The notes under the pieces are model-generated. The model saw nothing but the letters and a program-made list of their open reading frames with translations, made no database searches and had not been told where the DNA came from. This document shows, one piece after another, positions 11,942 to 14,367 of a stretch of DNA of 64,000 bases. The stretch spans positions 24,279,509 to 24,343,508 of the forward strand of contig CM102171.1 of NCBI GenBank assembly GCA_046562895.1, read 5' to 3'. Source of the DNA: Trichechus inunguis. Its lineage: Eukaryota. The position numbers were made by a program, and so were the translations under genes. Each line of letters starts with the position of its first letter. Positions within the stretch are counted from its first letter, which is position 1.

Positions 11942-13925
11942 TTTTTTTTTGATCAGATACATTTCCACATTCTTGGTCCTGGAAATTGTCTTTTATCATA
12001 ACCAAATTATCTGTATAAAATGTAAGTGGTATTAACACCAGGATCTGAAGCAAACAATGCAACTGGTCAGTACACGCTGGTTCTATATATTTTGAGAAAC
12101 ACTTCAGTACACAAAAGAAGCGTTCAGTGTTAAGTAGATGACACGAACAATCTTGGTGCCTGGTCTAATGAAGAATCCAGTGTCTTTTCAGGAAACTGAA
12201 GACACTCAAAAGTTGCTCCCCAATTTCTAATAACAACTTTCTAAAAATGAACATTTCCATTTGATACAAATATACAAATTTAAAATAATTTTATAGTTCC
12301 GAGTGGTCTACCATTTTTAGAATTCATGTGCCAGAAAATACAGTCAATTAAAAAAATACCAGAGAGGTGAGGACAGAAGACTCTCTAGATCTCTACAACG
12401 AAAATGAATATCACTTCAATAGGTGACTAGTCGTGGAGAAAGTGGCACTCTTGGAAACCAGCAGCACTGAAAGATGGCAGGTCACAAATCTGGCAATAGG
12501 GGATAAGATGTACAGTAAGGGCCGTTTTCCTGGCAACGTTATTCAAGGACAAAAGGAGGAAAGGCGATCTGTTCTGGAGACACAGCAGAAAACAGCTGGT
12601 GGAAGTTGTCCACATGGTGGATTTTGCCCTTCAGTCCTGAGACAGAAAAGTGGTGAAATACTATGTTGACACCTTTGAACAAAATGTTGCATGAACAAAA
12701 TATACAGCCTTCCAATTACTTTTGTACTTAATATTAACAACATTGTCGAGTTTCTTCAGGAAATCAGAGTCTAGGTGATTGTATTCGCTGGTCAGTGTGT
12801 GAAAATGTACTAATACATAGTCCTTCACAGCAATGTGATCCATTAAATGGATAAAATACAGGAGAGACTTGTCCACATCTATTAATGTTACAGAAATGTT
12901 TCTTTCAACTACCACCCTCACTGTGCGACCACGGTTATCAACACCTGTTTGGTATAAGGCTTTTAGAGAAGCAATATCGGATAGCTCCTCAGGTCTTGCT
13001 TGACATAACCAGCGATTATAATTTCTTTAATGCCGCTTCTGGAGGGCTGCCTCTGATAACTGTCCCCGAAGGATTAATCTTCTTTGCTTATCAGTATCTC
13101 CTTCCATTCGAGCAAAAGCATGAGAGCTAATGAAAGAGAGAGCAACTCCTAAGCCTTCATCTCTTCTCCTCTAGGTTGTCCTCTGGAGCACCAGGCTTTT
13201 CATTTGTCCTTATCTGCCGTTCAGGTACCACAGGCTTCCCTTCTGCTTTTCCAATATTTGCAGGAAAGTACAGCAAAGACCAACTCTTCTCCTTCAAAGC
13301 CCTCTGGAAATACGGAGGTAGCAGCTTTTGGTAGGTAGCCGCTTTAAGTTCAGAGACAGCAAATATTACTTTTTCAGTGGTCTCCTCATGAATCTCTAGA
13401 AATTTCCTTACAGTGCAAAGTGCTATGTGTGTTGCATCCTTTAGGATAACCTCATTTTGCAGGATTTATAACACAGAATCCAACAGAAGACACTGACTAT
13501 ACTTTTGCCAGCTGAAGTATGTTTGTGTAGCAGCTGTAAAGGGAACTCTCTGCCGCTGTGTGATAGCAGCTCTTAGGTTCCACTGTGTGAATGGCGACCC
13601 GGGCAGATAGATTAAATCCTTTGGTCAATTTTGCTTCACCTTTCTGGCAACCTTTAAGTTTCTGGAGGTCCTCCTTCAGATCAGGCCCTGGGAGCATGAA
13701 GATGCTTTCTGACACAAGATTCTTATCTGTGAGACTCTCATTGCTGGTATTCACAATGACTGCATTTTGGTATTGCCACATCTCCTTTCCAGGCAGAACC
13801 CAGCTTTCTCCATCATTTCCTCCTAGAAAGCAAAGGGAATGTCCGGAGGAAAGGGGTCCTGGAAGCAGACCCAGAAGGTGAAATCTGTATGTTTAAGAAG
13901 CTCCTCAAGTGATGAGTAAGAGCCA
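11942..13925 (-). pseudogene. GDAP2: GDAP2 processed pseudogene (5'-truncated retrocopy with frameshifts and in-frame stops)
   Basis: Minus-strand translations are collinear with human GDAP2 and show no introns. AVIVNTSNESLTDKNLVSESIFMLPGPDLKEDLQKLKGCQKGEAKLTKGFNLSARVAIHTVEPKSCYHTAAESSLYSCYTNILQLAKV* is the macro domain, where human has AIVNTSNESLTDKNPVSESIFMLAGPDLKEDLQKLKGCRTGEAKLTKGFNLAARFIIHTVGPKY. Next comes SVSSVGFCVINPAK*GYP, then after a frameshift KFLEIHEETTEKVIFAVSELKAATYQKLLPPYFQRALKEKSWSLLYFPANIGKAEGKPVVPERQIRTNEKPGAPEDN. The CRAL-TRIO part follows: VVVERNISVTLIDVDKSLLYFIHLMDHIAVKDYVLVHFHTLTSEYNHLDSDFLKKLDNVVNIKYKSNWKAVYFVHATFCSKVST. The CDS tail ...ENGPYCTSYPLLPDL* ends near 12482. 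The 3'UTR runs to a T11 run at 11942-11952, which is the poly(A) read on the + strand. Confidence 0.8.
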
Positions 13926-13973
13926 AGCAGTCCTTTCCACATGTCTCACCTTCTCCTTCTCCAAAAACGGGAG

Positions 13974-14157
13974 GCCCGCCTGGACGAGGTCCTCTCACAC
14001 ATGAAGCGGCACAAGAAGCTGGAGAAGCAGATTCTTCGCACTGGCAGGGACCTCTTCAGCCTGGACTCAGAGGACCCCAGCCCCTCCAGCCACCACCCCC
14101 CCACCCCTGTCTGCAGAGAGCAGTTTCTTCCCCCGGCAGCAGCAGCAGAAATACTGA
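13974..14157 (+). CDS. PAGR1: PAGR1 (PA1) C-terminal coding exon. The 5' boundary is uncertain; alternatively it starts at 13962. The tail is frameshifted by one extra C at 14096-14102.
   Basis: Translation [43 protein letters not shown] matches the human PAGR1 C-terminus ([43 protein letters not shown]) as I remember it. After a C7 run the reading frame +1 gives [18 protein letters not shown] (human PPLRSSGSSLFPRQRKY*), with the TGA at 14155-14157. Candidate acceptor is ttctccttctccaaaaacgggag|GCC. Confidence 0.6.
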
Positions 14158-14367
14158 TGGCTGCTGCTCCCTCCTCCAGGGGCAGAGTCCACACCTGCTG
14201 GGGCCGGGCCCCCCTTCCCCAGCCCTGGACAGCAGGGGACACGGGCAGAGGAGAGAAATGCCAAGCTCCCGACAAAGCACCTGGCAGGAAGGAAGGGGTC
14301 TGTGCATGTGTTTATGTTTTCTGTTGAACATCTGTTTGGTGATTGGGGCTGAATTTCCTAAGTCTAA

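Follow-up and report, generated by a model that had tools for sequence, protein, structure and literature searches.

A GDAP2 retrocopy beside a PAGR1 pseudo-exon upstream of MVP in the manatee Trichechus inunguis

The stretch of DNA analysed here, called the window throughout, comprises 64,000 nucleotides (nt) from the manatee Trichechus inunguis (assembly GCA_046562895.1, contig CM102171.1, positions 24,279,509 to 24,343,508). From left to right, it holds a repeat-rich region, a remnant of PAGR1 intron 2 interrupted by a decayed copy of GDAP2 on the minus strand, a PAGR1 exon-3-like sequence and the MVP gene. The original prediction, made from the letters alone, explained the GDAP2 copy as an L1-mediated insertion into, or just upstream of, the last intron of PAGR1. 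Very probably, the copy is indeed an L1-made GDAP2 processed pseudogene, neutral and functionless, but one that lies in the MVP-side copy of an old PAGR1-MVP segmental duplication. Two GDAP2 cDNA contigs were used for comparison, L001 (Logan SRR31578144, 2905 nt) and L007 (bat, 2748 nt). The parts of the retrocopy and of its target site are as follows.

11875 to 11889, no strand: left copy of a 15-bp target-site duplication, GAAATCCATATTATT, aligned to the empty-site sequence GAAATCTGTATTTTT.
11890 to 11900, minus strand: degenerate poly(A) tail remnant, AAAAATAAATA on the sense strand, between the last cDNA-homologous base (~11901) and the left target-site duplication.
11901 to 12481, minus strand: part derived from the GDAP2 3' untranslated region (3'UTR), ~580 nt past the stop codon (L007 match to 11904; three-way alignment).
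11942 to 11952, minus strand: internal A11 run (T11 on the plus strand), equivalent to GAAAACACCGAAA in the bat cDNA and AAACTGTAAAAAC in L001.
12482 to 12484, minus strand: parental stop codon TGA, retained (codon-projected alignment to the L001 coding sequence).
12485 to 13879, minus strand: GDAP2 coding remnant, codons ~31-498 (coding-sequence alignment, tblastn, Pfam, PDB 4UML).
~13170 to 12646, minus strand: CRAL-TRIO domain (Pfam).
~13757 to 13410, minus strand: macro domain (Pfam, PDB 4UML).
13880 to 13894, no strand: right copy of the target-site duplication, GAAATCTGTATGTTT, aligned to the same empty-site sequence.

The identity of the copy was established at the protein and nucleotide levels. 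In a six-frame translation, GDAP2-like peptides are scattered over all three frames of the minus strand between ~12,480 and 13,880. The two longest open reading frames (ORFs) match the Pfam families Macro (E=8.6e-18) and CRAL_TRIO_2 (E=1.9e-14), and the best solved structure for the macro-domain part is 4UML, the human GDAP2 macro domain (E=5.5e-71). The stitched conceptual protein shows up to 79% identity to GDAP2 orthologues from across the vertebrates. An exact look-up of the retrocopy ORFs, and of the ORF of the PAGR1 pseudo-exon described below, in the protein collection gave no match, and a homologue search with a short peptide yielded fragments only. The bat cDNA yields one collinear high-scoring segment pair, in which cDNA positions 391-2271 correspond to window 13791-11904 on the minus strand at 81.1% identity. 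For L001, the identity is 82.3% over 13791-12172 and 78.7% over 12162-11948, and a tandem duplication of 66 nt, peculiar to that contig, accounts for the only large gap. This duplication (~66 nt, L001 2056-2121) lies in the GDAP2 3'UTR and is missing from both the bat cDNA and the retrocopy.

As for the absence of introns, the exon junctions were mapped by placing L007 on the genomic GDAP2 locus of Pteropus (L006). The parent gene, whose structure was read in Pteropus, is multi-exonic and 46.8 kb long, with junctions at cDNA positions 393, 533, 686, 776, 852, 1012, 1169, 1249, 1324, 1463, 1519 and 1662. All 12 mapped junctions are contiguous in the window, and the largest gap within the coding sequence is 6 nt. 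Pfam, 4UML and the cDNA alignment agree with the original description of an intron-less GDAP2 copy on the minus strand, and the single segment pair spanning every junction confirms that the macro and CRAL-TRIO domains are collinear with the cDNA. The alignment contains no introns, and the ORF is broken. In human, GDAP2 presumably lies at 1p12 and the PAGR1-MVP pair at 16p11.2.

The copy is heavily decayed. With the GDAP2 frame projected onto the window from the L001 coding sequence, nucleotide identity is 82.6%, and 11 frameshifting insertions or deletions are found along with 4 premature stops, at codons 159 (TAG, 13499), 174 (TGA, 13454), 317 (TAA, 13029) and 439 (TAG, 12663). The earlier count of at least 3 frameshifts and 3 in-frame stops is a valid lower bound, and its 5' truncation near codon ~30 was correctly placed. 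Owing to this truncation, the retrocopy has no start codon, and its coding capacity is lost.

The insert extends from 11890 to 13879, with its 5' end near GDAP2 codon 30, and both of its ends had to be revised. The T11 run at 11942-11952 had been taken for the poly(A) tail. It resembles a tail and sits 41 nt upstream of the true end, but cDNA homology extends ~45 nt beyond it, where GAAAACACCGAAATCATTAGCAAAACGCAGGTCTTAGAATTTTACCGCA of the bat cDNA aligns with AAAAAAAAAATCAAAATTGTTACCAAATACAGGACTTGGAATTTTACTACA of the window, and runs through to ~11901. Since both cDNAs are homologous past the run, it is internal to the 3'UTR. The comparison of cDNA and window did return a single intron-less hit with an A-rich tail remnant; this remnant is the 11-nt sequence AAAAATAAATA at 11890-11900, not the T11 run. 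At the other end, the proposed limit of ~13925 moves to 13879, since 13880-13960 is PAGR1 intron common to deer, dugong, aardvark and elephant. An apparent GDAP2 homology up to ~13950, with an 'LPSWGDSC'-like translation, was rejected as a chance likeness after alignment with deer and dugong had shown 13880-13960 to be PAGR1 intron.

Insert-free loci delimit the element on both sides. The insert is missing from the PAGR1 loci of dugong (L004), T. manatus (L009), elephant (L008), aardvark (L005) and deer (L002). The comparison of orthologous introns, proposed together with the original prediction, showed that intron 2 carries the empty site in dugong, T. manatus, elephant and aardvark. In dugong, manatee and elephant, the empty site reads ...GAGACCTGGAAATCTGTATTTTT/AACAAGCTCC... 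The 15-mer GAAATCTGTATTTTT is single-copy at the PAGR1 loci of dugong, T. manatus and elephant, as the target site is at the deer locus, and it matches both window flanks. A target-site duplication had been expected around 11942 and 13925; a 15-bp pair does exist, at 11875-11889 and 13880-13894, flanking 11890-13879 instead. Its two copies mismatch at 4 of 15 positions. A generic direct-repeat scan missed the pair, which was exposed only by the empty-site comparison.

Read along the element, the target is CTTGTT/AAAAATACAGATTTC, i.e., TT/AAAAA, which fits the L1 endonuclease consensus TT/AAAA. Target-primed reverse transcription by L1 leaves established hallmarks, and the copy is assigned to L1 because it combines a target-site duplication, an A-rich tail remnant, a TT/AAAAA target and a 5' truncation. 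The earlier view of an L1-type retrocopy of a multi-exon gene in an Afrotherian genome, that of the manatee, is thereby upheld in part. Alternatively, the retrocopy may have been born elsewhere and brought to its present position by duplication or rearrangement at the DNA level. The region clearly underwent segmental duplication and gene conversion, as described below, which lends this idea some ground. Nonetheless, it is very improbable: the exact bounding by a 15-bp duplication of a local single-copy target, the 3' A-rich tail and the TT/AAAAA nick are the signature of a primary L1 insertion.

The sequences on both sides of the insert derive from PAGR1.

11070 to 11874, plus strand: 3' part of a PAGR1 intron 2 remnant, left of the insert, aligned to dugong L004 13177-14003 (91%) and to intron 2 of aardvark, elephant and deer.
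13895 to 13960, plus strand: remnant of the 3' end of PAGR1 intron 2, right of the insert, with the old polypyrimidine tract (five-species alignment).
13961 to 14157, plus strand: PAGR1 exon-3 pseudo-exon, with the old stop codon at 14155-14157 (five-species alignment).

On the left, the intron 2 homology breaks at ~11070, within a truncated MIR-like element. On the right, the intron remnant carries a 21-nt deletion specific to the window, and the insert ends 82 bp upstream of the sequence homologous to PAGR1 exon 3. With both flanks homologous to PAGR1 intron 2 and an exon-3-like sequence only 82 bp away, the retrocopy could be thought to sit in the last intron of the functional PAGR1 of this species, where it may alter splicing, as was originally proposed. 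However, the exon itself is damaged. The functional exon 3 is a phase-1 exon starting ..G/GA AGC TCA (GSSARS), and the window has no acceptor at the conserved position. A 20-nt deletion found only in the window takes away the acceptor CAG/G together with 17 nt at the start of the exon, which hold the GSSARS codons, and the leftover AG is mutated to AA. The polypyrimidine tract, which had been described as leading into the PAGR1 acceptor, precedes no usable acceptor at all. The pseudo-exon retains only the residues from QKREARLD on, and a 7-nt insertion shifts the terminal KY-stop out of frame with QKREARLD, breaking the ORF to the ...FPRQ(Q)RKY stop. Furthermore, it carries the replacements K>E, D>H and E>K at residues that are invariant elsewhere, the comparison covering aardvark, dugong, manatee, elephants, sengis, tenrecs, sloth and primates.

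Relaxed tblastn and blastn searches found no PAGR1 exon 1 or 2 in window 1-11900, despite an intron 2 of only 3.3-3.5 kb in dugong and aardvark. Judged from its sequence, the 'PAGR1 terminal exon' of the window is a duplicated, non-functional pseudo-exon.

Some further observations were made on PAGR1 itself. A CAG-repeat expansion is seen at its C-terminus (window 14130-14150; dugong L004 ~14280), which reads RQQQRKY in dugong and manatee, RQQQQKY in the window pseudo-exon, and RQRKY in other mammals, elephant and aardvark included. In red deer, assembly GCA_002197005.1 (L002 10139-12500) seems to be without the greater part of PAGR1 exon 1 and the whole of exon 2; the annotated red deer PAGR1 has only 92 amino acids, and a ruminant short interspersed element lies in intron 2 at ~11280-11620 of L002.

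Further downstream, the window holds a working gene.

29121 to 48675, plus strand: intact MVP coding region of 14 exons, all GT-AG, encoding 885 amino acids (exon reconstruction).

In the exon reconstruction, a human MVP sequence was used as no more than a guide for tblastn. The resulting protein is identical to T. inunguis MVP KAM9584228.1 and differs from T. manatus MVP by one residue (S versus T in VQDVK[S/T]GR). The T. manatus MVP locus (L011, which starts at window 19100) shows 99.13% identity to window 19100-57424. The window is the manatee MVP locus. An elephant or hyrax origin, considered in view of the divergence, was rejected on the distance matrix and the exact MVP match. The possibility that it represents a dead duplicate of the whole locus was rejected, given the intact MVP with its 14 GT-AG exons.

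The working PAGR1 lies elsewhere. The annotations of T. inunguis and T. manatus have in common an intact PAGR1 of 253 amino acids, a protein which the window exon is unable to encode, and a loss of PAGR1 in the window species was rejected, as the manatee has the intact gene elsewhere. In T. manatus, it is found on JH594776.1 at 2,731,601-2,735,884, ~105 kb from the MVP start codon (2,626,711) on the same scaffold, and its intron 2 has the empty site. In elephant (CM057430.1), the intact PAGR1 is ~115 kb from MVP, and the spacing in deer is ~8.7 kb. Taken with the missing acceptor, the frameshift and the lack of exons 1 and 2, the distant and insert-free PAGR1 leaves the retrocopy hardly any chance of lying in the last intron of the working gene, and the window piece next to it is a pseudo-exon. 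Since the insert lies outside the functional PAGR1 gene, the proposed effect on splicing falls away and has no basis.

Comparison among species indicates how the window came to hold only half of the pair. Two paralogous copies per genome, each with a different intact gene, are present in T. manatus (L009 with PAGR1, L011 with MVP) and in elephant. In dugong, a decayed copy of MVP exon 2 sits directly downstream of the intact PAGR1 (L004 24190-24298), with a 1-nt insertion and an in-frame TGA. The elephant PAGR1-side MVP copy (L008 24445-24955) has 10 of 42 residues of exon 2 replaced and a damaged exon 3, and the T. manatus PAGR1 flank covers only the first 27 nt of the MVP exon 2 copy. In elephant and manatee, the genuine MVP exons show 95-100% conservation. 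These data point to a segmental duplication of old date, after which the two copies degenerated reciprocally and underwent gene conversion in patches; the duplicated units would be arranged in tandem. One feature upstream of the PAGR1 remnant fits in here.

9226 to 10636, plus strand: probable tail of the preceding duplication unit, matching the elephant MVP locus L010 31014-34811, which lies 0.8-4.6 kb past the MVP stop codon.

Within it, window 9226-9723 also matches window 49456-49955. Beyond this probable unit tail come an AfroSINE-like element (10636-10790), an AT-rich stretch and the intron 2 break at ~11070, and window 9226-11070 is probably the junction between duplication units. The AfroSINE-like element has 12 further matches in the window. 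To the right, a 5.4-kb insertion at 18497-23940 is missing from every PAGR1-side copy and from deer, and is present in the elephant MVP-side copy. As it is common to the elephant MVP-side copy, the duplication predates the elephant-sirenian split. This insertion holds an ORF with a Pfam RVT_1 reverse-transcriptase domain (22734-23159), the sequence of which looks RTE/BovB-like. The left end of the window, positions 1-9200, consists mostly of interspersed repeats, and at least 56% of it has other copies within the window; two ORFs in it, a C-terminal one like L1 ORF2 (4516-4935) and an RTE-like one (3244-3633), fall short of Pfam significance.

The age of the retrocopy was approached through its decay, scored at non-CpG sites where the two functional GDAP2 cDNAs agree. 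The decay amounts to 9.4% at codon positions 1-2 (Jukes-Cantor distance 0.100) and to 12.5% when all such sites are counted. The distances between the two duplicates vary along the locus. In a comparison of six sequences, informative sites in 23940-26033 group by species (48:10:5), with a sirenian between-copy distance of 0.08, and those in 28175-29120, just upstream of the MVP start, group by copy (16:8:5), with a between-copy distance of 0.167. The other flanks are at a distance of 0.065-0.087 from the sirenian PAGR1-side copy, and the branch of the window lineage measures 0.03-0.045. This mosaic of distances, from 0.07 to 0.17 (window 11076-18497 and 23940-26033 versus 28175-29120), indicates patchy gene conversion between the sirenian duplicates. 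Half of the unconverted distance of 0.167 agrees with the decay of the retrocopy. The insertion would have taken place around or before the elephant-sirenian split, and the sirenian flanks would have been converted later.

Some observations weigh against this picture. The flanks abutting the insert are only ~7% diverged from the PAGR1-side copy, with a branch of 0.03-0.045 versus a decay of ~0.10, a discrepancy for which the six-sequence comparison accounts in large part, and an old insertion would need conversion tracts that end at the 2-kb heterology on both sides. As for the L1 origin, AATAAA is missing upstream of the inferred cleavage site; AATACA occurs ~20 nt upstream instead. The same flanks allow for a younger, sirenian-stem insertion, made after the flanks last shared sequence (branch ~0.04), with the excess decay put down to faster mutation or to the transcript of an already decayed GDAP2 pseudogene as template. 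Such an insertion requires no special behaviour of conversion tracts; it is compatible with the ~92% identity of the abutting flanks to the PAGR1-side copy and with the lack of an unconverted, highly diverged collar beside the insert. It is nevertheless less likely than the old insertion, though a serious rival to it. At sites that two functional cDNAs have kept alike, the retrocopy has decayed by 0.094-0.125, 2-3 times as much as the flank branch (0.03-0.045); the two copies of the target-site duplication differ at 4 of 15 positions; and the unconverted segment of the same duplicate, at 0.167, proves the locus to be old and mosaic.

If the copy is an old L1 insertion in the MVP-side duplicate, the following course of events can be proposed. 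The segmental duplication would have spanned PAGR1 intron 2 to ~5 kb beyond MVP. The PAGR1-side copy would have kept PAGR1 exon 3 and lost MVP, and the MVP-side copy, i.e., the window, would have kept MVP and lost PAGR1 exon 3. A GDAP2 mRNA, polyadenylated at a proximal site ~580 nt past the stop codon, would have been reverse-transcribed and inserted at TT/AAAAA by the L1 machinery through target-primed reverse transcription, the target site lying in the PAGR1 intron 2 remnant of the MVP-side duplicate. Truncated at its 5' end near codon 30, the copy would never have had a start codon or promoter and would have decayed neutrally ever since.

The locus resembles several known systems. Like the L1-mediated processed pseudogenes of mammals, the GDAP2 copy is intron-less, collinear with the mRNA including part of the 3'UTR, truncated at the 5' end and equipped with an A-rich tail, a 15-bp duplication and a TT/AAAA target; it also contains many frameshifts and stop codons and presumably lies away from its parent gene. 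Nothing essential sets it apart: the tail has shrunk to 11 nt, the canonical AATAAA is missing, and an internal A11 mimics a tail. The GDAP2 retrocopy is an ordinary neutral relic of a very common class. The PAGR1-MVP pair, for its part, behaves like reciprocally degenerating tandem duplicates. The PAGR1 side has an intact exon 3 and a decayed MVP exon 2, the MVP side shows the reverse, and the working genes have been pushed from ~9 kb to ~105-115 kb apart. The pair differs in that it is known here from the array ends only and in that the between-copy distances are mosaic. Finally, the insert shares with the retroposon presence/absence markers of Afrotherian phylogeny a discrete insertion and a clean empty site in paralogous and orthologous comparisons. 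In contrast to those markers, its value is only potential, and gene conversion in the flanks complicates its use. A search of the available library for work on GDAP2 pseudogenes, Afrotherian PAGR1 and duplicated MVP yielded no paper on this retrocopy or on the duplication.

In itself, the retrocopy is of little consequence, and it has no bearing on PAGR1 function. For annotation, window 13961-14157 is not to be called a PAGR1 exon. Of the lineage-marker idea put forward originally, a modified version remains: what the insert marks is the MVP-side duplicate, not the PAGR1 gene, and it is a potential presence/absence marker for that copy. Of modest interest is the context of duplication and gene conversion, in that an old duplication, accompanied by reciprocal gene decay and conversion in patches, has split the PAGR1-MVP pair in manatee, dugong and elephant. 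It may tentatively be suggested, at somewhat less than even chances, that the GDAP2 insert and the PAGR1-MVP duplication together form a shared derived character of elephants and sirenians, or of all Paenungulata. If this is true, the insert records conversion tracts that homogenised both sirenian flanks yet stopped at the 2-kb heterology, and the locus would be a natural example of an insertion that blocks conversion between duplicates. It would also provide a rare-genomic-change marker in a still unresolved region of the Afrotherian tree.

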